Shown here: positions 2,361 to 25,815 of the stretch, one piece after another | Numbering within the stretch: the stretch's first letter is position 1 | Layout: each line of letters starts with the position of its first letter | IMG/VR virus record: IMGVR_UViG_3300036801_000124 | Span: 1-30,908 of that record | Source: a virus | Taxonomy: Duplodnaviria > Caudoviricetes | Direction: 5' to 3' (one strand) | Length of the DNA: 30,908 nucleotides | Made by a program: the position numbers and the translations under genes | The notes under the pieces: generated by a model | The model's input: the letters and a program-made list of their open reading frames with translations, nothing else | Told to the model about the DNA's origin: nothing | Database searches by the model: none

Positions 2361-5300
2361 CTACGCCTCGGTGACCTCGTTGACGAGGCTGCGGATCTCG
2401 TCCTCGACGGTCGGCGCGACGATCCCGGCAGCGACGAGCGCGACCGCGACGGGCTCGTCATCGACCTGCTCGAATGACGCGCGCAGCGAGCGCGGCACCG
2501 GGAAACCCGGCACGTTGACGCTGAGCAGGGCGACGAGTTCGAGGTTGCCGTCCACTCCGCGCCAGTCGCCCGAGACGGTCGAGCCGCGCAGGATCCGCAG
2601 CTTCTCCTCGGACAACTCCGGGTTGATCGCCCCGGCGAACCAGCCGCCGTGCTCGTCCTCTCCGAACGAGACGTGGGCGGCGACGGTGCCGGTGTTGTCG
2701 TAGTGGCTCGTCGCGTCCTGGCGCGAGAGGCGCGTCCCGGCGTGCGCGGAGTCGAGCGTGATCTTGCCGACGGCCAGGTGCTCGCCCTCGTCGCACTCGA
2801 TCTCGCCGAGCAGGTAGTAGGCGTAGTTCGTGTTCGAGTGGGGCGCGGTGACGCACTGCTCGAACGAGAGGTGGCACGTGTCCCACTGCCAGGCGTGCCC
2901 GAAGATCTGGCCGCCGTCGGTGATCGTGAGCGGCGTCACCTCGTCGAACTCGGGATTCGCGAACCAGTCGGCGGGCGGCGAGACCGGCGCGAGCCCGGCG
3001 GCGGCAGCGGTGAGGGAGGGCTCCTCGACGATCAGCGGGATCGGCTGGAGCTTGTAGTACGGCTCGACCAATGTCTCGGCGCAGCCGCAGTCGATCTCGA
3101 ACTCGGCCGGGCCGGTGTAGCGATGCGGTACCCAGCCACCCCCCGCAGCGACGAGGTCGATGCTGGCCTGTCCGAACGCAGGGAACGGGCAGACAGTCGC
3201 CATCCCGATCACCGCACGGTTGATCGCGAGGACGAGATCGCCGTTGAAGAAGGCGTCCATCAGGTCCTCCTCGGGCGGGGCGTCTTCACCAGACGCACCC
3301 GACCACACGCCGTCTTCGCCCTGCACCGCGATCCACTCGCCGTCTTCGTTGAACCAGTCGGCCTTCGAGACGTGCTCCCAGTCGAGCGGTGCGATGTCCA
3401 CCGACAGGCCGGTGAGGGACTTCTCACCGACCAGGGCCTCGATCTTCTGGCCCCACTCGTCGTCGCTGAAGACGCCGGATGCCTTGATCTTGCCGTCGTC
3501 GCGCCACATCGCGTCGATCCGGCCTGCGACCTTCGCGCGGTCGTGGCCGCCCTCGGCGCTCGTCTCGATCAGACCCATCAGCGTCAGCGGAAGCTGGCGC
3601 GCCTGCTCGTCCGGGGGGAGGATGATCGAGCCCGGCGCGAACGCGCGGCCGTCCTCGGTCAGGACGCCCTCCGGCACGAAGGTCGCAGTCCACTCGTGGC
3701 CAGCCGGATTCGCGGGCGGCGTGATCTCGTCGGAGCGCTCCGGGATGACCTCGGAGACCTCCGGGATCGCCGCCTCGGCGGCATCGGCGGTCAGCGTGAG
3801 GTCGGTCAGCGAGAACTTCAGCTTCGACTGGCGCTCCATCTTCGTTTCGACGTATCCGGCGTCCTCGACCTCGACCCAGTCAGCGCGGTCGGCGAGCACG
3901 GGGTCGCCGTCGCCGCCAACCGTCAGACCAGCGACGTAGTAGTCGCGCTCGTCGCAGATCAGGACCTTGTCGAGTCCGACGCTCACATCGACGGCGGCGG
4001 GCCAGTAGGACGTGTCGCTCTCGTTCGGGTGCAGCAGCGCGTTGATGTCGCAGAGGAGATCCATAAGACCCTCTTCCGGCCCCCAGACGACATCCCCGGC
4101 GGCCGCGCTGAGCGCGAGTAGCGCGCGGCGCGCGATCTGGCCGATCTCCGCCTCGAACCCGGCGAGATCTGGCCGTGTGGCGACGATCACGTCGGCGAGC
4201 GCGGTCACCTCGGACTCCGGGTAGGCGAACTCGCCGCAGCGGCAGGTGCCGCGACCGTCTTCGTGGTCGCAGGTGCCACCCGCGCCGGAATGCTCCGAGA
4301 AGGCGTGGCCGCACGCGCACTGCACGCTGGCGGCGAAGTCATCGACGGCGTCGAGCGCCGCGAGTTCCGGCTGCGCCGCCATGTCGTTGTCGTCGGGCTG
4401 GTCGTTCGAGGGGGTACCGCCGTCGTTCCCGTCACCACTGCCACCCTTGTTCTTCTTCAGCCGCTTGTCCTTCTTCGTGCCCTGCGACGGCTCGCCGCCG
4501 AGTTCGACCGAGATGATTTCGGCGATCTCGCCCTGGATGACGAGCGCCCAATCGGGGTCAAGTTCTGCCGCGCCCGGGCCTAGCGTCGTCTTCCAGTAGT
4601 GGTAGCGCTCGGCGAGCGCCGGGGGGTTCTCCGACCCGATCTCGGCGTAGGCCAAACGATAAGCGGCTACCTGGAGCCCTTCCGATTCAGCGCTTTCATC
4701 TCCTGCCAGATCTGCTCCTGTTCCGTCAGCGCTGTCGGTGTCGTGCTGAGATCCCCGCGCGCCCGGCGTCCTGGCATGGTCAGCGCGAGACGCGCCTGCG
4801 GCAGCTTCACGACCAGGTACGGCAGCATCAGTCGAAGCAGTTCCCTCGCCGTCGGCCCCGTCCAGACCAAGCGATATGCCTGCCGCCAGTTCGGATTCGT
4901 TCTCCGCATCTCCATCAGCGAGCCCCGACCGAGCCAGCCCTGGATCATCTCCAGCGCTGCCCGGTCGCAGTTCGCGATCACGACCGTCAGCGAGTACGTC
5001 CACGCGTCCGTGACCGTTCGCCGCGCCCCCACTGGTCCCCGCTGCGCTCTCGCGCGACGAATCGTGATCGTTCCCTCCCCGTCCAGAAACCCCGCCAACC
5101 AGGCGCGTTGCGCTCTCGTCAGCGGACTCACTATCGGCCCACGGGACCGTGATGCTCTCGTCGCCATACTTCTTCCTGGCGGCAGCATAGTACGCCGCGA
5201 TCTTCGGCTTGGCCGCGTCGCCGCCCTCGACGCTCGCACCACGCGCCCCCTGAAGCGCTGCCGCTGCGGCGGTGACGCCGCGCCAGACAGCGGTGAGCTT

Positions 5301-5636
5301 CCCGTCGATGACGGTCGCGAACGGCAGGTGGAAATCGCTGAAGTTTGAGCCATCCCCGTCCTTGACGAAGAACGCCCGCCCGTACTTCGCGTTCGGCGCA
5401 TCGTCGGCTCCGGCCCACGCGCGCACGGCCTTGTCGGCCGCGCCCGAGTCCCACGCAACGCCGCGATCTGACAGCGGCAGGCCGGTCGAGCCGGACGCTG
5501 CGGCTACGACGCTGAAGACGAGGTCGTGGATGTCGCGGATGTCTGCGAGGCTGAGCGTGTTGGTTGCGAGGCGGCGGCTGGCTGCGCGGCGTGCGCGCCT
5601 GCGGTCTTGGCTGTTCCCGCCGATGTTGCGGCGCAT
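2361..5636 (-). CDS. Capsid maturation (prohead) protease/scaffold multidomain protein
   Basis: SD AAGGAGG. N-domain LPL..AWD..A...Y.RAF..D...FHLPFA...LQGARG...YY...PW; protease-like block EGVLTEDGRAF...GHD.A.VAGRID...GLSVD...ATVCPFPAF; C-domain PPADWF.NP...FGH..W..CH...HYDNTG...SGDWR...VNVPGFP, as in actinophage capsid maturation proteases. Confidence 0.8.
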   Translation of the reverse strand: MRRNIGGNSQDRRRARRAASRRLATNTLSLADIRDIHDLVFSVVAAASGSTGLPLSDRGVAWDSGAADKAVRAWAGADDAPNAKYGRAFFVKDGDGSNFSDFHLPFATVIDGKLTAVWRGVTAAAAALQGARGASVEGGDAAKPKIAAYYAAARKKYGDESITVPWADSESADESATRLVGGVSGRGGNDHDSSRESAAGTSGGAANGHGRVDVLADGRDRELRPGSAGDDPGLARSGLADGDAENESELAAGISLGLDGADGEGTASTDAAVPGREAAAGASRADHARTPGARGSQHDTDSADGTGADLAGDESAESEGLQVAAYRLAYAEIGSENPPALAERYHYWKTTLGPGAAELDPDWALVIQGEIAEIISVELGGEPSQGTKKDKRLKKNKGGSGDGNDGGTPSNDQPDDNDMAAQPELAALDAVDDFAASVQCACGHAFSEHSGAGGTCDHEDGRGTCRCGEFAYPESEVTALADVIVATRPDLAGFEAEIGQIARRALLALSAAAGDVVWGPEEGLMDLLCDINALLHPNESDTSYWPAAVDVSVGLDKVLICDERDYYVAGLTVGGDGDPVLADRADWVEVEDAGYVETKMERQSKLKFSLTDLTLTADAAEAAIPEVSEVIPERSDEITPPANPAGHEWTATFVPEGVLTEDGRAFAPGSIILPPDEQARQLPLTLMGLIETSAEGGHDRAKVAGRIDAMWRDDGKIKASGVFSDDEWGQKIEALVGEKSLTGLSVDIAPLDWEHVSKADWFNEDGEWIAVQGEDGVWSGASGEDAPPEEDLMDAFFNGDLVLAINRAVIGMATVCPFPAFGQASIDLVAAGGGWVPHRYTGPAEFEIDCGCAETLVEPYYKLQPIPLIVEEPSLTAAAAGLAPVSPPADWFANPEFDEVTPLTITDGGQIFGHAWQWDTCHLSFEQCVTAPHSNTNYAYYLLGEIECDEGEHLAVGKITLDSAHAGTRLSRQDATSHYDNTGTVAAHVSFGEDEHGGWFAGAINPELSEEKLRILRGSTVSGDWRGVDGNLELVALLSVNVPGFPVPRSLRASFEQVDDEPVAVALVAAGIVAPTVEDEIRSLVNEVTEA
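4667..5131 (-). CDS. Single-motif LAGLIDADG homing endonuclease nested in the +1 frame of the protease gene
   Basis: AWLAGFLDGEGTITI motif, YSLTVVIANCD...LEMIQ..LG.G, YRLVW, LL..MLPYLVVK..QA and C-terminal MKALN.KG; likely GTG start at 5131 (154 aa). Confidence 0.85.
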   Translation of the reverse strand: MSPLTRAQRAWLAGFLDGEGTITIRRARAQRGPVGARRTVTDAWTYSLTVVIANCDRAALEMIQGWLGRGSLMEMRRTNPNWRQAYRLVWTGPTARELLRLMLPYLVVKLPQARLALTMPGRRARGDLSTTPTALTEQEQIWQEMKALNRKGSR

Positions 5637-5686
5637 CTCGATCCTCCTTCTACAGGGGGTCTCCCTTCGCGGGAGTGGATGCGCCG

Positions 5687-8689: not shown

Positions 8690-8964
8690 GACGGCACCTC
8701 CTCGCCGGTCGCCGTGTCGAAGACGGTGACCCAGCCGCCCGGCACGAACCCGTACCGGTTGGCGGCCGCCTCGGCAGTCCCAAGCGTGTCGCTGCGCTTG
8801 ATCGTCTCCGGCCCGAACGCGTAGTACGTCTGCGGGACGTAGCTGTTAGTCGCGCCGTCCCAGCGGCGTCCGTCGAAATCATCGGGGCGGCAGGCTACGG
8901 CGATGTAGCGGCACTGGCTCTGGTTGCGGAGCGTTAGGCCGCGAATGTTGAAGGTGCCCTTCAT
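8686..8964 (-). CDS. Hypothetical protein
   Basis: ATGA and GTGA coupling. Confidence 0.65.
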   Translation of the reverse strand: MKGTFNIRGLTLRNQSQCRYIAVACRPDDFDGRRWDGATNSYVPQTYYAFGPETIKRSDTLGTAEAAANRYGFVPGGWVTVFDTATGEEVPS

Positions 8965-9896
8965 GCCGCCACCGCCTCGGGGACTGCCAGCGCGGCGGCG
9001 TCCCCCGCCGCGCTGGTCTCTTCATCCTCGAACGTCGCGCCGACAACCAGGTCGGCCGCCTTCTGCGCCTGAGCGGCAGCCTGGACGACGAGCTTTTTGT
9101 CGTCCTTCAGCGCGCTCAGCCAGTTGGCGATGTACGAGGCCGAGTTCTCGTGCGTCTCGTCCTCGATCCCCGAGAGGCCGCAAAGCATCGCGGCCGTCAT
9201 CTCGGCGACGAGTTCTTCCTTCGCGTACGGCTCGATCGCGAACCCACCGGCGACGTACCGCTTCAGCCGCGACGGGTGCCCGGTCGAGTGAGCAAGCTCG
9301 TGGAACAGCGTCTTGTAGTAGAACGGCGCATTTTCGAACTGGCCCAGCAGCGGGATCCGGACGGAGTCGAGCGAGGGCGCGTAGTACGCCTGGTCGCCAC
9401 CGAACGAGTAGGCCGGGCCGCGACCGTCGAGGTAGTCCTCGACGAGGGCCTGCGCCTGCCCGATCCGCTCGTGCTCGGGAAGCTCAACAGTCGGCAGCGG
9501 CTCGATGCCGTCGGCCTGCTCGACGTTGAAGACGGTGTAGTCGCGGAGAAACATGACCTGCGGCACACGGCCGTTCTCGTCGGGCTCGGCGTCCCGCTTC
9601 GGGATCCGCTTCCAGAGGATGACGTGGGTGCCCTTCTCGCCCTTGCGGATCTGGCCACCCTTCTCCGTGATCGCCTTGTACGTGCCCCAGCGCGGGTCGC
9701 TGTAGCCGCCTTCGAGCGCGGCCAGGCCGAGCAGGAAGACATTGATTCCACGGTAGGGCTTGCCGCTCCGCACGTTGCGCGGACGGCTGTCGGCACCGAG
9801 GTTCTTCCACGGCTGGTGCCAGGGCACGGTGCCCTTCTCCAGCGACGCGATGATCCGGTCGGTGACCTCCTGGTAGATATCTCTCTTCTCTCTCAT
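8961..9896 (-). CDS. ardC: ArdC-like antirestriction protein (ssDNA-binding domain plus zincin-like metallopeptidase)
   Basis: DIYQEVTDRII..LE.G.VPW..PW, Y.GIN..LL, W.TYK...GGQIRKGEKG, YTVFNVEQ, AYY.P..D.V..P, HELAHSTGH..RL.R, YA.EELVAE, SASYI..WL..LK.D. Confidence 0.92.
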   Translation of the reverse strand: MREKRDIYQEVTDRIIASLEKGTVPWHQPWKNLGADSRPRNVRSGKPYRGINVFLLGLAALEGGYSDPRWGTYKAITEKGGQIRKGEKGTHVILWKRIPKRDAEPDENGRVPQVMFLRDYTVFNVEQADGIEPLPTVELPEHERIGQAQALVEDYLDGRGPAYSFGGDQAYYAPSLDSVRIPLLGQFENAPFYYKTLFHELAHSTGHPSRLKRYVAGGFAIEPYAKEELVAEMTAAMLCGLSGIEDETHENSASYIANWLSALKDDKKLVVQAAAQAQKAADLVVGATFEDEETSAAGDAAALAVPEAVAA

Positions 9897-13565: not shown

Positions 13566-13786
13566 CGCAGCGCGGAGACCTTCTCCTCGACCACGTCGAG
13601 GACGGCCCGCTCCGCCGTCGGCTCAACCCAGCCAGGGCTGAGCGCACGTAGAGAGCCTTCCAGGATCGGGTCGCTGTACGTGCCCATGAGCGCGTCGTAG
13701 ACGCGGACAAGCTGGAGGCCGTCGGCGTCCTTCCCGGCGTCGATCATGAACCGGTGGTCTCCCTGTTGAGCGACGATGGCAGCCAT
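13559..13786 (-). CDS. Small protein coupled to the MuF fusion (possible partner or immunity protein)
   Basis: TGATG overlap with the MuF stop codon. Confidence 0.6.
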   Translation of the reverse strand: MAAIVAQQGDHRFMIDAGKDADGLQLVRVYDALMGTYSDPILEGSLRALSPGWVEPTAERAVLDVVEEKVSALRY

Positions 13787-16700
13787 CAGATGCGGAGGTT
13801 CGCAACGTCGCTGAGGATCTTGAAGTCCTGGTAGTTGTCAACAACCTTGCCTGCGAGGCCGACGCGAGCGAGGAGATCGGCGAGTGCGCCTTGGCGGGCG
13901 TTCGCCGCCTTCCCGATGTCACGCAGCGACTTGTAGAAGTCGAAGGAGGTCGGTGGCTCGGTCGGGATGCCTGCCTGCTCGGTCTGCGGGCTGGCCTGCT
14001 GGGTGCCCTTGTTGTTCGCGTACAACTCGGTGACCGCCTCCACGGCCTCTCGCACGCGGCGTGCGTCTTCCCGTGACTGGATCAAGGCCATGTCGGGAGT
14101 GATGCCGCCGATCTCGGCGCTCGTGAGGCCGCCGTGGATCTCAACCTCGACGTATCGGCTGATGTCTTCGAGGTTGCCGGATTCGTATGCCTTGACGATG
14201 TCGAAGTCGCCCGTCCACGATCCGATCCCCGGGTCGGCGAGGAGCGACGGCGACAACTCCCCTCTGATCGCGGCGCGGTACGAGTCGCCGATGGTGAACG
14301 TGGCGCGGGCGTTCACGGACGGGTCGAGGTTGAGGATCAGGTCACCGTACTCCTGCACAATCCCGCCCTCGTCCGCCGTCCCGGAGAGGTAGCCGTAGAC
14401 GGGGCGCTCCACCGGGTCCGCGCCCGCCGGATACCCGAACATATTGCGCTCCGCCTCCGCGCGGCTGGCTGCCATCTCCGGCGTGACGCCGGGAAGCTCG
14501 TACTCCGTCTTGTAGCGGCCGTCCTTGACGATCTCTGCCAGCGTCTCGGGGGTGACACGAATCCGGATCTGTGGGTGCGCCCTGACGTAGCTTGAGATGA
14601 CCTCCTTCGCTGCCGCCTTGTATTCGCCGCTGGTCATGTGGTGGTCGGCGGCGTATTGCGCGATCTGCTTGTCGCGATGCTGGACGGCGGCTTCAGCGAT
14701 ATCGCGAGGCTGGCCGGGGAAGAAGTCGCCGCTGCCCACGGTCGGCGTCGGGTGTGTGATGCCGTCGGGGACGGGCTTCGCGACATCGGTGCAGGAGACG
14801 CCGTAACTGAACACCGCGACGAGCGAAGACTCCGCAGCCGTAGCGCACTTCGGGGCCTCCTCGATGGTGACCACGACGCGGTCGGCCCCAGTGTCGCCCG
14901 GCACCAGTGGATGATCTTCGGGGAAGACATCCTCCATGTGGTTGACCGTGACCGACTTGACCCGGTACATCGTCTCGGGCGGAGCCAGAACCTCGTGCTC
15001 GCCGATGTGGGAGGAGTACGGCCAGATCGGCGCGCCGGTGTGCGCCTTCTCGACACGGAAGATGAGGCCCGGCCTGTACGGGTTGGCGTAGCCAGACGCG
15101 AGCGCCGCATCGGTGGTCAGCGACTCGACCTCCCCCGGCTCGCCCATCTTGACGTAGCTGCCGACCCGATACTTCTTCTGCGCCCAGTTCGCGAGCGCGT
15201 CGGTCTGTTCCTTGAACGTCTCACGGAGGCGAGCCTGCGCCAGCGCCGCGTTACCGAGTCCCATCTTGCCGATGATGTCCTGCTCGATCTGGTTGTACGT
15301 CTCCGACAGGTTCGGGTCGATCCCGTTCGCCTTGACGGCCCGGTAGAGCGTCGTGTCGGGCGGCAGCGGCGGGGCCGATTCGACGACTCGTTTCAGGTTG
15401 TCGGCCGCCGTTTCGACTTCCTTCTTCGTGCGGTACCACTGCAACTTCTTCGGGTCGAGCTTCTTGCCCGCGAGGAAGTCGTTGATGTCGATGTAGCCGG
15501 TCTGCGTCCAGTCGTCGAGGATCTTCTTGTCGGCGGCCGAGAGGTTGTCGAGCCACGTCTTCTGCGGCGGGGCGTTGATGAGCTTGTCCATCTCCGGCCA
15601 CTCGGGCGCGATGATGGCCTCGCCCCGCGCCGTCTTCACCGTGGGCGTGTCGGCCGTCGGCACATCGGTCGCGGTCACGCCCTTCGGCCGCGAGAACTCG
15701 TCGAGGGCCTTCTGGTAGTCGCCCGTGTCGCGCTCGATCATCGAGAGCGTGCCGCGCTTCACGTCGTAGCCGCCGAGATCGTGGCCGAGCTTCGTGAGTT
15801 GCTTGACGAAGTCCGCGCCGGACCCGATCACCTGGAGGCGACCGTCGGAGGTGAACCGGCCGCCTGAAACTCCGGCGGACTTCATCGCTGCGAGGACCTT
15901 GTCCTGCGGCGTCGCCGTGCGGAACGTTGCCATCAGATCGTCGCCGGTGGGCTTGACGTTGATCGTGAGCGAGTCGATGAGCGGCTGGAGTTTCGGACGT
16001 GTCTCGCCGCCGACCTGGTCGAACGGGATCGCGTCGAACGCCTGAGCATCTGCGTCGATCTTGTCGCCGAGCTTCCAGAAGACGGGGTTGCCGCTCTTGT
16101 CGGTGCTGAGTTGGAGGAGATTCCAGTCGGGATTGCGGGCGGCCATGCCCATCCCGAACTGCACGCCGTCGAGAGTCGAGAAGTTGCCGTGGACGACTGA
16201 GCGCTTCAGGTCACGCGAGACACGGGCGAGCATGGCGCGGGCGTAGCCCTGTCCCTCGAACTTCTTGTCGAGCGCGAGCAGACCGATGTAGACGTGGTCC
16301 GGGTCTTCGGGCTTCGTGTAGAAGTCGAAGTGGCCGAGGGAGTTGCCCTCCTTGTCGGTGACCTTCATCAGTTTCCCGATCTTGCTCGGGTGCGGCCGTG
16401 GCGGGTACTCGTACGAGTAGTCCTCGTACTCGACCTTGAACCCATCGAGGGCCGCGTCAGCGCCTTCCGGCGCGTAGTCGAGCGCTGGCGTCCTCGCCCT
16501 GAAAAGGAGCACGCCGTCCTGGTTGTACGACTTGCCGAGGTTCGCCGAGAAGGCGTGCGCTCGGGCATCCAAGTTGAACCGCTCCAGGTTCGGTGGCGAC
16601 CAGCCCCACTCCAGCACGGAGTTCGCGTCGGTGAAGACCTGGCTGGCCGGAACCTGCATCGAGATGACGTGACTCTCTAGGTCCTGGCCGAGGTTGCCGT

Positions 16701-19700
16701 CCCCGTTCAACTCGGCGTACTTTTTCACCGGGCTGACCCAGTCTCCCGGGTTGATCTCGGTGACGTTCTCCGGGACGGCGCGGTAGATCGTGACCATCGC
16801 GCTCGGGTCGCCGTGGACCTTGTCGATGATGTCGAAGGCTTCTTGGTCCATGTCCGCCTGCCCGGTCCCGTAGATGCGAATGGCAGGCACGACCTTCGGC
16901 TGGTAGGCGACCTGGATGTTCTTCGAGTAGATGTCTCGCGGATACAGGTCGTGCTGGGTGAGGTCGTACATCGGCGCGTTGTAGCCGTCGTCGGTCGGGG
17001 CGCGATGCTGGATCTTGTAGGTGTCGTCTTCGGGCTTCGGCTCGGTCGGGCTGACGTGGATCGAAACTGACGGCTCGGTGTCGCCCTCCCAGATGCCGGT
17101 GACCTTGTCGATCCCGTCGATATGGACGCCGTACGCGTCCGCCGATTTCTTCGCGTCCTCAATGAACTGCTGGTACTTCGCCGAGTCGTAGAAGCCGACG
17201 GCGTTGTCGATGCCAGCCCGGAACGGCGTGATCCCGATGTCGATGGACTGATCCGGCATCTGCGCCATCACGGTCGGCGGCACCTCGGCCGGGACGGGCG
17301 GCTTCACAACCGTCTTCGTCGCGTCGAACGCCGACTGCGGCGGAATCCCCATTTTCTCGCTGAAGTCGCGCGCCTGCTGGAGCAGCGTCGAGATCGGCTC
17401 GTCGATCCGCTCGACCTTGATCGGGTGCGGCACGTCCGTGCCGGTTTGGTAGTCGCGGCCGAGGGACGCGGCCCAGCGGTGGTGGCCGTCGAGAATGTAG
17501 TTGTCGCTGGAGATCACGACCGGGTTGCTGGCGATAGGCGTCGCGCCCTCGGTCTCCATCTCGTCCATCGTCTTCGCGATCTTCGGGCCGTCCAACTCCG
17601 TCTGCGTGGCCCGCAGTGACTCCGGATTCACCATCTCCTCCTCGACCTTCACGCCCTGGTCGCGGAGCGACTGGAAGAATGGCTCCGAGATGTCACGCCA
17701 CGGCGACGGCTTCCCCTCGAAGATCGTGCCCGGCAGCTTCTCGGCCGGTGAGCCGGGGATCGGGAGGCCCGCCATCTGTGGCATGTCGATGCGCGGGATC
17801 CCGAGCGAGTCCTGCGTGAACAGGTTCGTCCCCGGCACCGACACCTTCCCGAGGTCGAGGCTGGGTGCCTCCTTGCCCGCCTTCTGCGCGTCGGCGGCCA
17901 TCTTGCCGAGGTCGTCGATGAACGTGTTGACCTCGCTGGTCTGCGCGAGCCGGACATTCTTTCCGGCGGCCAGTTCCCTCGCCGCCTCCTCCACGCTAGA
18001 GGTCGTGAGATCCGGCTCCGGCCACGGCACCCTGACCTGCCCGGCCTCGCTCGTGACGAGGTTCTTCAGGTCGTCGCCGATGGTCTGGATGAGTCCCGGC
18101 TCTTGCTCCGCCTCGCTCTGACCGGCAGCGACAGGTGCTTCCGTGTACGTGAGGGTGCAGCGACAGTTGATCGTCTCGCCCGGCTCACCGTTCGGGTCGC
18201 CCGGGAACTGAAGCTGGTCGCCGCCAACCTCGAACGTCGCGTCTTGCGGGACGGTCTGGCCGTCGAGCCCGGCGTAGTCCTCGTGGCGCGGGTAGCGCGC
18301 GCCGGGCGCGGTGTGCCAGACCTTGTTGTATTTCTGGCCGGTGACGGACGCGACGAGTTGGGTCGCGGCGAGCGAGCCGCCGTTCACGGCGCGGGCGAGT
18401 TCGGTGCGCGCGATCATCGTCGATCTGACCTTCGAGGCAGCCTTCATGCCGTCGCGGATCAGTCCGGCAGTCTGCGGCACCGTGAGCCCGTTCTGATAAG
18501 CCGAGCCAATGATCTTCATAAGGTTCGCGCGTGTTGTCATCGCGATGTTCGTCACCTGGCTCGCGCTGACGGCGAGCATCTGCGCGGTCAACGGATTCGA
18601 CACGTCCCACGAAAGCCCGGCCTGCTCCAGCGCCGGAGTCATCGTCTGCTCGATCATCGCCCTCCGGACAGGGTCGGTCTTGGCGAGGATCTGCTGGACG
18701 AGCGCGTTCACGTCGATCAGTTCGTCCGGGTAGGGCGGCGTCCACGACGCGGCGGCCGTGAGGGCGCGCACGCCGACGAGCGGCAGCGCAACCTCCTCGT
18801 CGTTGCCTCTGACGATGTGGAGCGAGTCGAAGTGGAGCGGGGCACCGGAGGCTGATTCGGGATAGCTACCTACCTCTTCTGCCGCTCCCGCCAACGCCGA
18901 GTCGCTTCGCGTCGGCAAGCGAGACAGATCCCCCAACCGCGACTGTCCCGCCGCTCGTAGCGCGTCCCGTGGATCGAACACACGGCTTGCCCCGGGTTGT
19001 GAATCTGACCGTGCTCCGAGTTCGTGACGGCCTGCATGTGTCGTGTATTCAGACACCGGCCCTTCCGGCAGCGATGATGCAGGTGAACCGCCGAGGGCAG
19101 GTAGCCCTTCTCCACCATCCAGACGATCCGATGGGCTTGAATCGGTCGCCCCGAAACCTTCACCTGCACGCTCGCTGCCGACGGGTTCCTCTCGCAGATC
19201 AGGCAGTCGCCGTCCGGTCTCGCCTCCGCGAGCAGTCGTCCCGCTTGCTCCTCCAACGTCAGCGCTCGCATTGGTTAGGCCCACATTACCGTCGTTCACC
19301 GTCAAGTGAGGCAGGAAGCCGTGGTCGCGGCTGAAGTTGATGCCCGCATCGAGGAGCGCTTCAGCGACGGCTGTACGCGTCTCTACGAGGCCGCGCACGT
19401 CCGGCAGAAGGATTCCCACCCCTGGCGGATCGAACGTCCCGTAGCCGCCGACAACGCCGGAGAGAGGCGCATACGAAGCCGCAACGGGCTTCAGGGCGTC
19501 GGCGATCTCCTGCAACGGCTGATCGGTCTCGCCGAGGTAGGCGAGGGTGACATGCAAAATCTCGGGCGGGTCGCCGTCAGGGTCAGCGAGAGCGGCGGCC
19601 TCGACCGGTCGCGGCTTCAACGCGATCATGGTCGAAGTCGAGGCCACATCCGCATTCGCCGCCGACGCGCCGAAGTGGCGGAGCGCCTTGTCCTGGAACC

Positions 19701-19857
19701 GCGCCGCCGCCTTCGTGCCAGCACGGGCGAGGATCGTCTCGATGATCGTGGCGAGCCGTGGCTCCAGATCATCGACGCGCTTCTGCGCCGCCTTCACGAC
19801 GGCGTTGTGCTCGCGCGCACTGACCTTCGGGCGTTGCCGACGTTCGACCGCCGCCAT
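13786..19857 (-). CDS. MuF-family minor head protein fused to multiple enzymatic domains
   Basis: Directly after the portal. 2H motifs HVT/HLT (~19550, ~19305); MuF IARTE...KVW...H...DGQ.V...F.VGG..L.FPGDP......INCRC (~18150-18750); ParB-like ILDGHHRW (~17480); GNAT FEGQGYA (~16250); VIP2/Alt-like ART LYR...SLTT...EHEVL (~14900-15550); DUF3626-like RPVYGYL...TFTIGDS...YVEVEIHGG (~14110-14570). Confidence 0.85.
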   Translation of the reverse strand: MAAVERRQRPKVSAREHNAVVKAAQKRVDDLEPRLATIIETILARAGTKAAARFQDKALRHFGASAANADVASTSTMIALKPRPVEAAALADPDGDPPEILHVTLAYLGETDQPLQEIADALKPVAASYAPLSGVVGGYGTFDPPGVGILLPDVRGLVETRTAVAEALLDAGINFSRDHGFLPHLTVNDGNVGLTNASADVGGASGTTARGGETGRRLPDLREEPVGSERAGEGFGATDSSPSDRLDGGEGLPALGGSPASSLPEGPVSEYTTHAGRHELGARSDSQPGASRVFDPRDALRAAGQSRLGDLSRLPTRSDSALAGAAEEVGSYPESASGAPLHFDSLHIVRGNDEEVALPLVGVRALTAAASWTPPYPDELIDVNALVQQILAKTDPVRRAMIEQTMTPALEQAGLSWDVSNPLTAQMLAVSASQVTNIAMTTRANLMKIIGSAYQNGLTVPQTAGLIRDGMKAASKVRSTMIARTELARAVNGGSLAATQLVASVTGQKYNKVWHTAPGARYPRHEDYAGLDGQTVPQDATFEVGGDQLQFPGDPNGEPGETINCRCTLTYTEAPVAAGQSEAEQEPGLIQTIGDDLKNLVTSEAGQVRVPWPEPDLTTSSVEEAARELAAGKNVRLAQTSEVNTFIDDLGKMAADAQKAGKEAPSLDLGKVSVPGTNLFTQDSLGIPRIDMPQMAGLPIPGSPAEKLPGTIFEGKPSPWRDISEPFFQSLRDQGVKVEEEMVNPESLRATQTELDGPKIAKTMDEMETEGATPIASNPVVISSDNYILDGHHRWAASLGRDYQTGTDVPHPIKVERIDEPISTLLQQARDFSEKMGIPPQSAFDATKTVVKPPVPAEVPPTVMAQMPDQSIDIGITPFRAGIDNAVGFYDSAKYQQFIEDAKKSADAYGVHIDGIDKVTGIWEGDTEPSVSIHVSPTEPKPEDDTYKIQHRAPTDDGYNAPMYDLTQHDLYPRDIYSKNIQVAYQPKVVPAIRIYGTGQADMDQEAFDIIDKVHGDPSAMVTIYRAVPENVTEINPGDWVSPVKKYAELNGDGNLGQDLESHVISMQVPASQVFTDANSVLEWGWSPPNLERFNLDARAHAFSANLGKSYNQDGVLLFRARTPALDYAPEGADAALDGFKVEYEDYSYEYPPRPHPSKIGKLMKVTDKEGNSLGHFDFYTKPEDPDHVYIGLLALDKKFEGQGYARAMLARVSRDLKRSVVHGNFSTLDGVQFGMGMAARNPDWNLLQLSTDKSGNPVFWKLGDKIDADAQAFDAIPFDQVGGETRPKLQPLIDSLTINVKPTGDDLMATFRTATPQDKVLAAMKSAGVSGGRFTSDGRLQVIGSGADFVKQLTKLGHDLGGYDVKRGTLSMIERDTGDYQKALDEFSRPKGVTATDVPTADTPTVKTARGEAIIAPEWPEMDKLINAPPQKTWLDNLSAADKKILDDWTQTGYIDINDFLAGKKLDPKKLQWYRTKKEVETAADNLKRVVESAPPLPPDTTLYRAVKANGIDPNLSETYNQIEQDIIGKMGLGNAALAQARLRETFKEQTDALANWAQKKYRVGSYVKMGEPGEVESLTTDAALASGYANPYRPGLIFRVEKAHTGAPIWPYSSHIGEHEVLAPPETMYRVKSVTVNHMEDVFPEDHPLVPGDTGADRVVVTIEEAPKCATAAESSLVAVFSYGVSCTDVAKPVPDGITHPTPTVGSGDFFPGQPRDIAEAAVQHRDKQIAQYAADHHMTSGEYKAAAKEVISSYVRAHPQIRIRVTPETLAEIVKDGRYKTEYELPGVTPEMAASRAEAERNMFGYPAGADPVERPVYGYLSGTADEGGIVQEYGDLILNLDPSVNARATFTIGDSYRAAIRGELSPSLLADPGIGSWTGDFDIVKAYESGNLEDISRYVEVEIHGGLTSAEIGGITPDMALIQSREDARRVREAVEAVTELYANNKGTQQASPQTEQAGIPTEPPTSFDFYKSLRDIGKAANARQGALADLLARVGLAGKVVDNYQDFKILSDVANLRI
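18870..19271 (-). CDS. HNH homing endonuclease nested in the +1 frame of the MuF gene
   Basis: DGDCLI, AHRIVW....G.LP....LHHRC....CLN..HM.AVT..EH (HNH_3-like) and C-terminal C.IHG...C.ACRR Zn motif. Confidence 0.85.
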   Translation of the reverse strand: MRALTLEEQAGRLLAEARPDGDCLICERNPSAASVQVKVSGRPIQAHRIVWMVEKGYLPSAVHLHHRCRKGRCLNTRHMQAVTNSEHGQIHNPGQAVCSIHGTRYERRDSRGWGICLACRREATRRWRERQKR

Positions 19858-24112: not shown

Positions 24113-24340
24113 TTAGGAGTCGGCGTCGGACGTGTAGCCACCCTCATCCGGGTGGACATGGCGAGCCTCATCCGTCGCAGACTCCGGCTGCTCCGGCTCG
24201 CCGTAGCCCGGTGCTTCCTCGTCCGGGGTCGGCTGTCCGGCGGACTCGACCGCCGCCTCCGTGCGCGCGGCGACCTCCTCGTCGCTCGGTGCCTCCGGAG
24301 TTGCCTCAACCTCGGCCTGCTCTGCCGGTGTCTCACTCAC
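24113..24340 (-). CDS. Small highly acidic low-complexity protein
   Basis: E/P/A-rich; GGGAGG SD. Confidence 0.6.
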   Translation of the reverse strand: MSETPAEQAEVEATPEAPSDEEVAARTEAAVESAGQPTPDEEAPGYGEPEQPESATDEARHVHPDEGGYTSDADS

Positions 24341-24524
24341 TGGTGCCTCCCTTCTCGATTGCGCGCTTCGACCAGAGGAACGCTTCCTCCAGCTTCGTCG
24401 CGATGATGGCCTTCTCCCGGCCCACCGGGTCTTCCGGGTTGCCGGTCAGGTCTTGAACGGCGAACAGGGCCGCCTCGATGTCGTCTCTGACCTCGCGGAG
24501 CACCTGGAGCGCGCCCTCGTCCAT
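24333..24524 (-). CDS. Acb2/Tad1-like helical hairpin protein (candidate nucleotide-signal sponge)
   Basis: GREKAIIATKLEEAFLWSKRAI matches the RE.A...TKLEEA..W signature; TGATG coupling. Confidence 0.6.
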   Translation of the reverse strand: MDEGALQVLREVRDDIEAALFAVQDLTGNPEDPVGREKAIIATKLEEAFLWSKRAIEKGGTSE

Positions 24525-25321
24525 CACTCGCCTCCTCGTAGAGGTGCCGGATCTTCTATCAGTGTGGTGTCGTCGTGGGGCTGGTGGATCTCGAACGCAT
24601 TGTGGAACGACGCCACGATCTGCTCGTCCGAGTCGCCGTCGTAACAACGCCAGCCAACACCATAGGTTGCGGGCAGGCTCGTGACGGCGTAGGCGAGGCG
24701 GCCGTTCTTGATCTTGCGGAGGAACTGCTGCTCGCTGCGCCAGGAGAAGTGGCGGACGTTGAATGGGCCATCGACGGTGAGCGTCTTGCCGTTGGTCTGC
24801 GCGCCGTGGTTGCCCATCTCGATGTAGAGGTCCGGCCGCAACCGGCAGATCACCTTGAACATGCCGAATGTGCGCTGACGCCACCGGATCCGCTTGACCG
24901 GGTTCTCCTGGTACGTGTCGTCGCTCGTGGTGCAGAGGTGGTTGAAGACGGGGACGCGGAAGATGCCGACATCGGGGCCGCAGCCGCCTAGATGGTCCTT
25001 GATCCGGACACGCGGGTCGTTGTGCTGCCAGATCTCGTCGGCGTCCACTGGCACGACCCAGCGGTGTCCACGCGCGAGCGCTTCCATCGCGAGCCCGGTC
25101 GTCTTGCGATCCTGGTAGTAGCCAACCTCCAGGTCGCCGTGAACCTGAAGTCGTTCGCCGAACTCCTCGATGAGAGCCATAAGGATGTCGGGCGTAGCGT
25201 CGGCGCTCATGTTGTCGGCAACGATCACCTCGTCCACGTGCCAGAGCAGGTGCCGGATCGTGGTCTCGATGATGTCGGACTCGTCTTTACACAACATCAC
25301 GGCGCACACACCGCCGCTCAC
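24524..25321 (-). CDS. Glycosyltransferase family 2-like
   Basis: CAVML.KDE.DII...I.H, VIVADN.S.D.T..IL, WVVPVDADEIW, VRHFSWRS..QF..K. Confidence 0.85.
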   Translation of the reverse strand: MSGGVCAVMLCKDESDIIETTIRHLLWHVDEVIVADNMSADATPDILMALIEEFGERLQVHGDLEVGYYQDRKTTGLAMEALARGHRWVVPVDADEIWQHNDPRVRIKDHLGGCGPDVGIFRVPVFNHLCTTSDDTYQENPVKRIRWRQRTFGMFKVICRLRPDLYIEMGNHGAQTNGKTLTVDGPFNVRHFSWRSEQQFLRKIKNGRLAYAVTSLPATYGVGWRCYDGDSDEQIVASFHNAFEIHQPHDDTTLIEDPAPLRGGE

Positions 25322-25815
25322 TTCGCCCTCCGCTTCCGCATGTAATCGCGGATGTAGTCGCGGCGGCAGATCCGGCAGCCGCGCCGACCGTCCGGATAGC
25401 TGTAGACGTTGTCGTCCGTGAGGTCGTGGCCCTTGTCGCAGATCGTCTTGCGCGAGTTACGGGCTGGTGCTCCTTCGCCTCGCAGAATGTTTTCGCGATT
25501 CGTGACGGCTTCGAGGTGCGCCGGGTTGACGCAGTTCCGCACACGGCAGAGGTGGTCAATCGTTGCGCCTTCGGGGATCGGCCCGTAGGCCAGTTCGTAT
25601 GCCTGCCGGTGGGCACCGATGGACTGGTACGAACGTGGTGTGAAGCGCCCGTACCCATCCGCGCCAGTCGCGCCCGTCCAGAGCCAGCACCGACCGAGCG
25701 TTGGATACTCGGGGCCGTGGCGGTCGATCTTCGCCTCGAAGCGTTCGGTAAGGGACACGCCGACATCATATTCCTCGTCCTTGACGAGCATGACCGCGCA
25801 GACGCCGCCGCTCAC
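25280..25815 (-). repeat. Duplicated 14-codon gene start (25774-25815 and 25280-25321) bracketing the HNH gene
   Basis: MSGGVCAVMLVKDE versus MSGGVCAVMLCKDE; 32/42 nt identical. Confidence 0.85.
25318..25815 (-). CDS. HNH homing endonuclease fused to the captured glycosyltransferase N-terminus
   Basis: ERFEAKI...CWLWTGA...GYG.F...AHR.AYEL..GPIPEG..IDHLCR.R.CVNP.HLEAVT..EN..RG...KT.C..GH...R.C..C. Confidence 0.92.
   Translation of the reverse strand: MSGGVCAVMLVKDEEYDVGVSLTERFEAKIDRHGPEYPTLGRCWLWTGATGADGYGRFTPRSYQSIGAHRQAYELAYGPIPEGATIDHLCRVRNCVNPAHLEAVTNRENILRGEGAPARNSRKTICDKGHDLTDDNVYSYPDGRRGCRICRRDYIRDYMRKRRAK

Follow-up and report, generated by a model that had tools for sequence, protein, structure and literature searches.

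Homing endonuclease genes lying hidden out of frame in phage genes were described for HNH endonucleases in actinobacteriophage DNA methylases, namely the ShiLan domain and the Pacc40 gp60 insertion (Arsenault, Gosselin, Gogarten 2025, PMC11855218), and another HNH case was noted in PMC12613952. A cyanobacterial dnaX intein was reported to contain an out-of-frame LAGLIDADG endonuclease (Phillips, DeSimone, Gogarten 2026, 10.64898/2026.09.14.751524), and for actinobacteriophage inteins, LAGLIDADG genes in antisense orientation or endonuclease VII genes in frame 3 were reported (Gosselin et al., 10.1101/2025.01.02.630785). A lone LAGLIDADG domain was found in cluster F phage methylases (Gosselin et al. 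2023, PMC9957025), and the free-standing seg/mob endonucleases of phage T4 represent intronless homing, with co-conversion of the flanks and regulation by hairpins that hide the ribosome-binding site (PMC2988022). The window, which is the whole stretch of 30,908 nucleotides (nt) of the Caudoviricetes record IMGVR_UViG_3300036801_000124 and to which all positions refer, carries portal, MuF polyprotein and protease genes on the minus strand, and was found to contain a single-motif LAGLIDADG endonuclease gene nested in the +1 frame of its capsid maturation protease gene.

The dual coding of this DNA is real and well supported. With a probability of roughly 0.78, a LAGLIDADG homing endonuclease gene is here read through and not spliced, the host protein gains an acidic linker which is predicted to be disordered, and homing spreads the insert.

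The nested gene, its host and the empty alleles

The host gene was found to be a single open frame which contained an N-domain, the insert, middle domains and the protease, with no stop between its start at 5636 and position 2361 (Table 1). Its profile matches were phrog_859/18402, and the region of about amino acids (aa) 640-1054 matched annotated capsid maturation proteases of actinophages in tblastn, the best matches being from actinobacteriophages. The later domains of the host protein were found to be acidic throughout, with 16-19% D/E and 5% K/R. The N-domain also occurs as a stand-alone protein of about 125 aa that ends just past the PW, and is elsewhere fused to other proteases; therefore the insert lies where two modules naturally meet. 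The Atlas clusters of the N-domain contained proteins of 121-124 aa without a Pfam family. As a separate observation, the domain of about 120 aa was found alone in Actinomycetota and fused at varying positions to unrelated phage prohead proteases (loci L003-L051).

A first-pass annotation, made from the letters of the window, had placed a LAGLIDADG gene in a shifted frame of the protease gene directly after the conserved ...YY....ITVPW end of the N-domain, and both points held, the nuclease frame beginning two codons past W166. The host-frame peptide S169-Q322 was found to contain 31 D/E and no K, F, W, Y, C or M as annotated, with 12 R instead of 13. The proposed linker of 155 aa had to be shortened, its first 13 residues being host-like and its foreign part comprising 143-148 codons.

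The nuclease matched PF00961 with an E value of 6e-4, which is under the Pfam curated cut-off, and phrog_5046 with an E value of 7e-21, and was assigned to LAGLIDADG_1 clusters in the Atlas with a score of 0.95. A profile built from the nuclease and nine relatives matched I-MsoI (E 5e-11) and I-CreI over positions 2-143/145. The nucleotide sequence codes for WLAGFLDGEG near the N-terminus, which aligns with the DGDG motif of I-CreI and I-MsoI, and E19 was present in 10/10 sequences. The residues D17, G18, E19, G20, G70, L106, K109 and A113 were found to be invariant in the 10-sequence family alignment. The protein contained one N-terminal LAGLIDADG helix in a full-length domain of about 150 aa, together with the basic-pocket Lys (K109) and a C-terminal helix; the corresponding residues of I-CreI are an acidic metal-binding residue and a basic-pocket Lys. 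Antisense LAGLIDADG genes carried by Gordonia minor capsid genes, 30% identical to the nuclease, were among its nearest annotated relatives. The 1091-aa host protein was present in the public collection, in which the nuclease sequence as called here was absent. Two homologous LAGLIDADG genes (L081 and L128) were found to have an open antisense frame across them and for 255-288 codons beyond, and are possible further nested or antisense cases.

The insert was missing in all five close full-length host homologues (67-83% identical, 933-984 aa) and in the more distant P0009. The empty alleles read VPW-AGDESAGE-TAAFL-LAYA, and the allele of the window reads VPW-ADSESADE-SATRL-(143 foreign residues)-VAAYR-LAYA. 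The host-like 5′ segment kept the register of the empty-allele motif (P 0.001 by fixed-position shuffle); from aa 169 onwards it doubles as the first nuclease codons. Since this segment is in register and host sequence resumes at V323, the net insert by protein alignment is 148 codons (444 nt, a multiple of three), with a five-codon ambiguity, at the domain boundary. The nuclease frame measures 465 nt, and both of its ends overlap host-like sequence. The foreign linker gave no Pfam match and no second holder of it was found. A second host-like copy, AGDESAES near the 3′ end, was considered and rejected, being expected by chance (P 0.49) and being what the C-terminal helix conserved in the family gives when read in the shifted frame; no convincing terminal repeats of an insertion sequence were found at the insert. 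Six host codons at or after the nuclease stop (4653-4670, minus strand) were found to be mostly rare for the phage (GTA, GCT, TAT, CGT, TTG), as if recoded or foreign.

The flanks of the insert were mosaic. Amino acids 323-361 were 0-15% identical to P0004-P0008 and so divergent from every close empty allele, and against the closest allele P0005 the identity was 64% over aa 101-166, 15% over aa 323-361 and 76-100% downstream of aa 362. These flanks would fit a co-conversion tract, but also ordinary phage mosaicism. In run X1, from which the window may derive, one contig crossed the insert without differences, and in a related contig of 782 nt the two flanks were joined over a distance shorter by about 330 nt; the loose end of this related contig translated to a P0005-like peptide. 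None of 46 host-related loci contained a match to either nested nuclease, and word-limited searches, which give weak negatives, found no second filled allele.

Codon use in the nested genes

Each host codon is composed of a nuclease third base and the first two bases of the next nuclease codon, and therefore only the wobble base is free. Three nulls that hold the nuclease protein fixed were used, namely phage codon use, context-dependent use and permutation of the gene's own codons, and expected values are given in this order. The host frame was found to contain 31 D/E (18.4, 23.0 and 27.0 expected), 12 K/R (22.5, 26.9 and 14.4 expected) and no F/W/Y/C/M/K (4.4, 4.2 and 5.4 expected; P 0.009, 0.013 and 0.0008). 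No T-ending nuclease codon stood before a base other than C, where 5.8, 4.9 and 6.1 were expected, and all 11 were followed by C as had been annotated, compared with 130/358 in phage genes, a gene set which here, in the rare-codon counts and in the comparison of G+C at third codon positions (GC3) included 134 codons of the nested HNH region described below. At those four-fold sites of the nuclease that precede A, C or G, where a C would turn the host codon into one for His/Gln, Pro or Arg, G:C was 59:12, and at those before T, where the choice is only between Val and Leu, it was 4:6 (contrast p 0.007). The synonymous codons of the nuclease are biased as the host frame predicts. Codons that would put Arg, Pro, Lys, a stop or a bulky residue into the host frame are avoided, and in these data such avoidance is not distinguishable from selection for acidity itself.

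The nuclease was found to lie outside the range of 28 ordinary 150-codon gene windows used for calibration, with a G share of 0.83 (maximum 0.60), a net charge of -0.12 (minimum +0.02), a z of -2.99 for bulky residues (minimum -2.04) and a z of -4.16 for T before C (minimum -3.0). The homologues comprised 81 distinct LAGLIDADG genes, which remained from 87 loci (the best 80 of 259 confirmed in a scan covering 11/64 parts, and 7 others) after removal of 3 loci whose matched span contained stops and of 3 duplicates. The same shifted frame was open in 0/81 of these, being closed in all 11 GC-rich (>=60%) controls, and the G share at four-fold sites was 0.65 in the nuclease versus at most 0.57 across the 81. 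The GC3 of the host frame was 0.55 within the insert versus 0.85-0.92 over most of the host gene. The insert contained 21% D/E and 8% K/R, matching the acidic host protein, and the FoldIndex of aa 168-322 was -0.127, compared with +0.10 to +0.18 for the domains. The structure prediction was uninformative, as AlphaFold gave a mean predicted local distance difference test score (pLDDT) of 33.5 for the host protein and modelled aa 158-320 as coil in a model of nearly all low confidence.

Several observations of the first-pass annotation were reproduced, namely the preferred codons (GCG 14/17, ACG 12/15, CTG 13/19, GGG and GGA together 8/12) and the same-phase control frame 3880-4320, in which 38.8% Arg was found against the annotated figure of about 40%. 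Its caveat that the basic nuclease protein drives part of the contrast was controlled by keeping that protein fixed in the nulls. The open and aromatic-free frame to which it had drawn attention was observed, but both properties alone are expected by chance and were rejected as evidence: the host frame stayed open with P 0.24-0.43 in synonymous recodings and was open in 6/28 ordinary windows, and the lack of aromatics (0 against 1.7-2.2 expected) had P 0.08-0.17. Pro avoidance was likewise rejected as a specific signal, the ordinary windows having a mean z of -1.67 and a minimum of -4.0 versus -3.0 in the nuclease, and CpG avoidance was rejected as the cause of the G bias, CpG not being depleted (13.3 versus 14.8 per 100 nt). 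The annotated view of the host frame as a selected, disordered linker is supported by the codon tests; its translation and disorder are inferred.

A second nested gene was found by a single scan for drops in host-frame GC3. This HNH gene lies in the +1 frame within the 2H-phosphoesterase domain of the MuF polyprotein (2023 aa, 19857..13786), the distance from the HxT histidine to the next strand being 159 residues with the nested gene versus 21 in the empty relative L132. Its host frame was open, G:C at four-fold sites was 37:10 versus 4:5 before T (p 0.0007 when pooled with the LAGLIDADG gene), and the host frame contained 21 D/E versus 13.7 under permutation of its own codons. A 40%-identical free-standing HNH relative (L134:2492-2930) was found to have ordinary codons and a closed shifted frame, and it directly follows an intact gene in which the same 2H-type HxT motif is present, an arrangement which suggests that the family of the nested HNH gene targets 2H genes. 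The non-nested HNH gene of the window was used as a same-genome control and was found to have ordinary codon use, a four-fold G:C of 27:33 and three stops in the shifted frame. This gene opens with the recoded first 14 codons of the downstream glycosyltransferase gene (24524-25321), 33/48 nt being identical over 16 codons, and has apparently captured the start of that gene. Several such nucleases are present in one contig, and therefore the lineage is being invaded by nucleases without splicing elements.

It is improbable that the open frame is an accident, with codons inherited from a G-preferring donor and the protease made from a downstream start or the allele defective. The probability of an open frame given above (0.24-0.43) and the acidity, which derives largely from the G bias, would agree with an accident, as would the in-frame starts with moderate Shine-Dalgarno scores at 4208, 4190 and 4064. 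However, the G bias disappears before T, where the class of the host residue cannot change, and it is common to two unrelated nested nucleases of one genome and absent from the non-nested HNH gene. None of the 81 homologues reaches it, and CpG is not depleted. The next three in-frame host starts 3′ of the nuclease had Shine-Dalgarno scores of -3.8, 0.1 and 0.0, against the much stronger match at 5636 (Table 1), and in each of the five close homologues a single frame encodes both the N-domain and the protease. The first-pass annotation had named free-standing homologues sharing the bias and the open frame, or a protease made only from a downstream start, as findings that would overturn its proposal, and neither was found.

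Splicing, expression and the proposed mechanism

At the level of the sequence, no intron or intein is detectable at the insert. No Rfam family was found at threshold anywhere in the window and no intron family at a relaxed threshold, and the insert region folded no better than shuffles (z -0.68). The nuclease frame is longer than the net insert, so there is no room for a separate ribozyme, and neither a ribozyme core nor sequence outside the nuclease frame, which mark group I/II introns, was present. The combination of features of an intein (a Hint domain, an N-terminal Cys/Ser, a C-terminal His-Asn/Gln and a +1 Cys/Ser/Thr) was also not found, as none of six codon-level boundaries had a Cys/Ser/Thr after the insert or a His-Asn end and Pfam gave no Hint domain in the insert. 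Removal by an unrecognised intron, ribosomal bypass or intein, with the open host frame incidental, is thus highly unlikely even though introns and inteins are the normal home of LAGLIDADG genes and an antisense position in Gordonia minor capsid genes, such as the closest annotated phage homologues have, is a layout known from a report on inteins (10.1101/2025.01.02.630785, accessible part). Excised sequence would, in addition, need no host-frame codon bias.

The host gene has a strong ribosome-binding match and no stop before 2361, and therefore a ribosome from 5636 would cross the insert. The GTG at 5131 was found to have a poor ribosome-binding match. The ATG at 5167, twelve codons upstream, was preceded by AGGAAG, although 31% of 106 background starts reach -5 kcal/mol. 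This AGGAAG is formed by rare host codons (AGG 8/298 Arg codons, TAT 10/143 Tyr codons), and a short predicted hairpin covers the binding site. The ATG 5167 with its hairpin was proposed post hoc and is a lead only. No sigma-70 promoter was found ahead of the nuclease. The nuclease GTG was also found to overlap the tandem stops TAG and TGA of the third frame (5128-5133, minus strand), which is open for 107 codons upstream; this might permit translational coupling if that frame were read, but is probably chance.

In the proposed mechanism, a homing endonuclease gene would have inserted itself between two modules, in a phase in which the host frame stays open. Ribosomes from 5636 would read straight through the insert, because it contains no stop and no splicing signature. 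Selection on nuclease third positions, which are host first positions, would keep stops as well as Arg, Pro, Lys and bulky residues out of the host frame. The tuned wobble bases would match the insert to a host protein that is strongly acidic, and the protease precursor may in this way carry a soluble spacer. The linker would be tolerated because it is located between independently folding modules, in a host protein that is probably processed proteolytically in the prohead, as prohead proteases are. The nuclease would be made at a low level from ATG 5167 or GTG 5131 and would act as a homodimer. Where a co-infecting relative has the empty allele, it would cut this allele within the end of the N-domain or close to it, and repair would copy the nuclease gene with flanking DNA.

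Several points weigh against this reading. The nuclease falls under the Pfam cut-off and is just 24-39% identical to its relatives, and the ribosome-binding sites of both candidate starts are unconvincing (-2.6 and -5.1 kcal/mol). With permutation of its own codons the D/E excess had P 0.056 and the K/R deficit P 0.21, and therefore the charge rests on the G bias. Several of the tested features were named by the first-pass annotation after the sequence had been viewed. A single filled allele was present in what was searched, so homing is not demonstrable by dN/dS (the ratio of nonsynonymous to synonymous substitution rates), which requires more than one such allele, or by patchy phylogenetic spread. 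The site is a variable domain boundary and not the conserved motif usual for homing elements, and phages often show mosaic flanks where no homing is involved.

The single filled allele, the weak internal start signals and the insertion at a variable boundary would also be expected if the overlap were real and read through with the nuclease now a passenger, fixed or recently stranded and no longer homing (or used against competing phages), and the codon bias a trace of past accommodation. This is unlikely, since the full-length frame and the family-invariant residues were kept, the drop of GC3 shows that the nuclease frame still dictates the codon pattern, and the empty allele co-occurs in run X1.

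The MuF polyprotein (13786-19857, minus strand) contained 2H phosphoesterase, MuF, ParB-like, GNAT, ADP-ribosyltransferase-like and DUF3626 domains. An ArdC-like anti-restriction protein (8961-9896, minus strand) was found between the MuF and protease genes. The gene at 24333-24884 (minus strand) gave a weak match to the Acb2/Tad1 hairpin (E 1e-5, just under the cut-off) and codes for a possible anti-defence sponge protein.

Table 1. Positions of the nested genes, their hosts and related features in the window
Feature	Positions	Strand	Description and basis
Single-motif LAGLIDADG endonuclease gene	4667..5131	-	154 aa; GTG 5131 to TAG 4667; +1 frame of host gene
Host gene	2361..5636	-	N-domain, insert, middle domains and capsid maturation protease; single open frame, 1091 aa
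Shine-Dalgarno match of host gene	5643..5649	-	AAGGAGG; duplex energy -12.6 kcal/mol
Conserved N-domain	5139..5501	-	aa 46-166, ends in VPW; alignments, Atlas clusters
Host-like 5′ segment	5100..5138	-	aa 167-179, ADSESADESATRL; alignment, in register with empty-allele motif
Foreign host-frame linker	4671..5099	-	aa 180-322; rich in Gly/Ala/Asp/Glu/Ser, predicted disordered; FoldIndex
Resumed host sequence	4554..4670	-	from V323 (VAAYRLAYA), codon overlapping nuclease stop; motif score
Capsid maturation protease region	2382..3704	-	about aa 645-1085; phrog and tblastn
Start GTG 5131 of nuclease	5131	-	ribosome-binding match -2.6 kcal/mol
Alternative nuclease start	5165..5177	-	ATG 5167 (166 aa), AGGAAG 5177-5172; -5.1 kcal/mol
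Nested HNH gene	18870..19271	-	133 aa; ATG 19271 to TAG 18870; PF13392 E 1.4e-8; phrog_826
Non-nested HNH gene	25318..25815	-	same-genome control; recoded copy of glycosyltransferase start

Comparison with described systems

The layout itself was published for HNH genes in phage methylases; it is new here that the gene belongs to the LAGLIDADG family and lacks an intein, that its host serves in head assembly and that a signature is visible in the codons. In the literature searched, no out-of-frame LAGLIDADG gene outside an intein was found, and published tables and supplements could hold one. Splicing-free out-of-frame homing elements are extended from HNH genes in dispensable methylases to a LAGLIDADG gene in a head-assembly protease, with quantitative evidence for selection on the host frame, and the same DNA is seen to be able to encode a basic DNA-binding protein and an acidic linker. 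Nested nuclease genes of this kind are invisible to annotation, and the presence of two nested elements in one contig of 31 kb suggests that they are common in soil actinophage-like genomes. If the proposal is true, it provides a searchable signature for phage genomes, in which codons end in G unless a T follows, T-ending codons stand before C and host GC3 collapses. We would give even odds to the wider view that read-through overprinting is a general third way into essential genes beside introns and inteins, by which nuclease genes of two unrelated families, LAGLIDADG and HNH, separately came to occupy the +1 frame of head-assembly genes in a single phage, with the wobble bases tuned to a soluble acidic spacer.

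As far as the accessible parts of the cited reports describe them, the cluster F methylases share with this locus a LAGLIDADG sequence in a phage gene without a detected intron or intein, but there it is a same-frame domain of the methylase and not a second frame. The T4 seg/mob genes share homing without a splicing element, co-conversion of flanks and short overlaps with neighbours, and their hairpin control of translation is a possible parallel; they differ in lying between genes (overlaps up to about 24 nt) and in belonging to the GIY-YIG or HNH families. In the actinobacteriophage inteins a nuclease gene is likewise nested in a virion or packaging gene, but within an intein and, for the Gordonia antisense LAGLIDADG genes, on the opposite strand. 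The dnaX intein has a LAGLIDADG gene in a shifted sense frame with the host frame read as a disordered stretch, as here, but it excises that stretch, whereas no splicing domain was found at this locus and the linker would stay in the host protein.

The closest likeness in layout is to ShiLan and Pacc40, in which the insert is also filled by the nuclease frame, the host frame is free of stops and no intron or intein was found, a GTG start lacks a clear ribosome-binding site and the host-frame product is predicted to be unstructured. The first 11 or so host-frame residues there resemble the host sequence after the site, and free-standing relatives adjoin the target gene, as L134 does for the nested HNH gene here. 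The locus differs from ShiLan in having a nuclease of the LAGLIDADG homodimer type instead of HNH, a head-assembly protease instead of a dispensable methylase as host, a domain boundary instead of a conserved-residue site, and the +1 phase; patchy spread was shown for ShiLan, in contrast to the single filled allele here. In the accessible part of its report, the ShiLan case was argued from the lack of stops and from structure models, with no codon-level test of the host frame. The LAGLIDADG insert works like ShiLan but, not being an HNH gene in a methylase, is not a member of that family.

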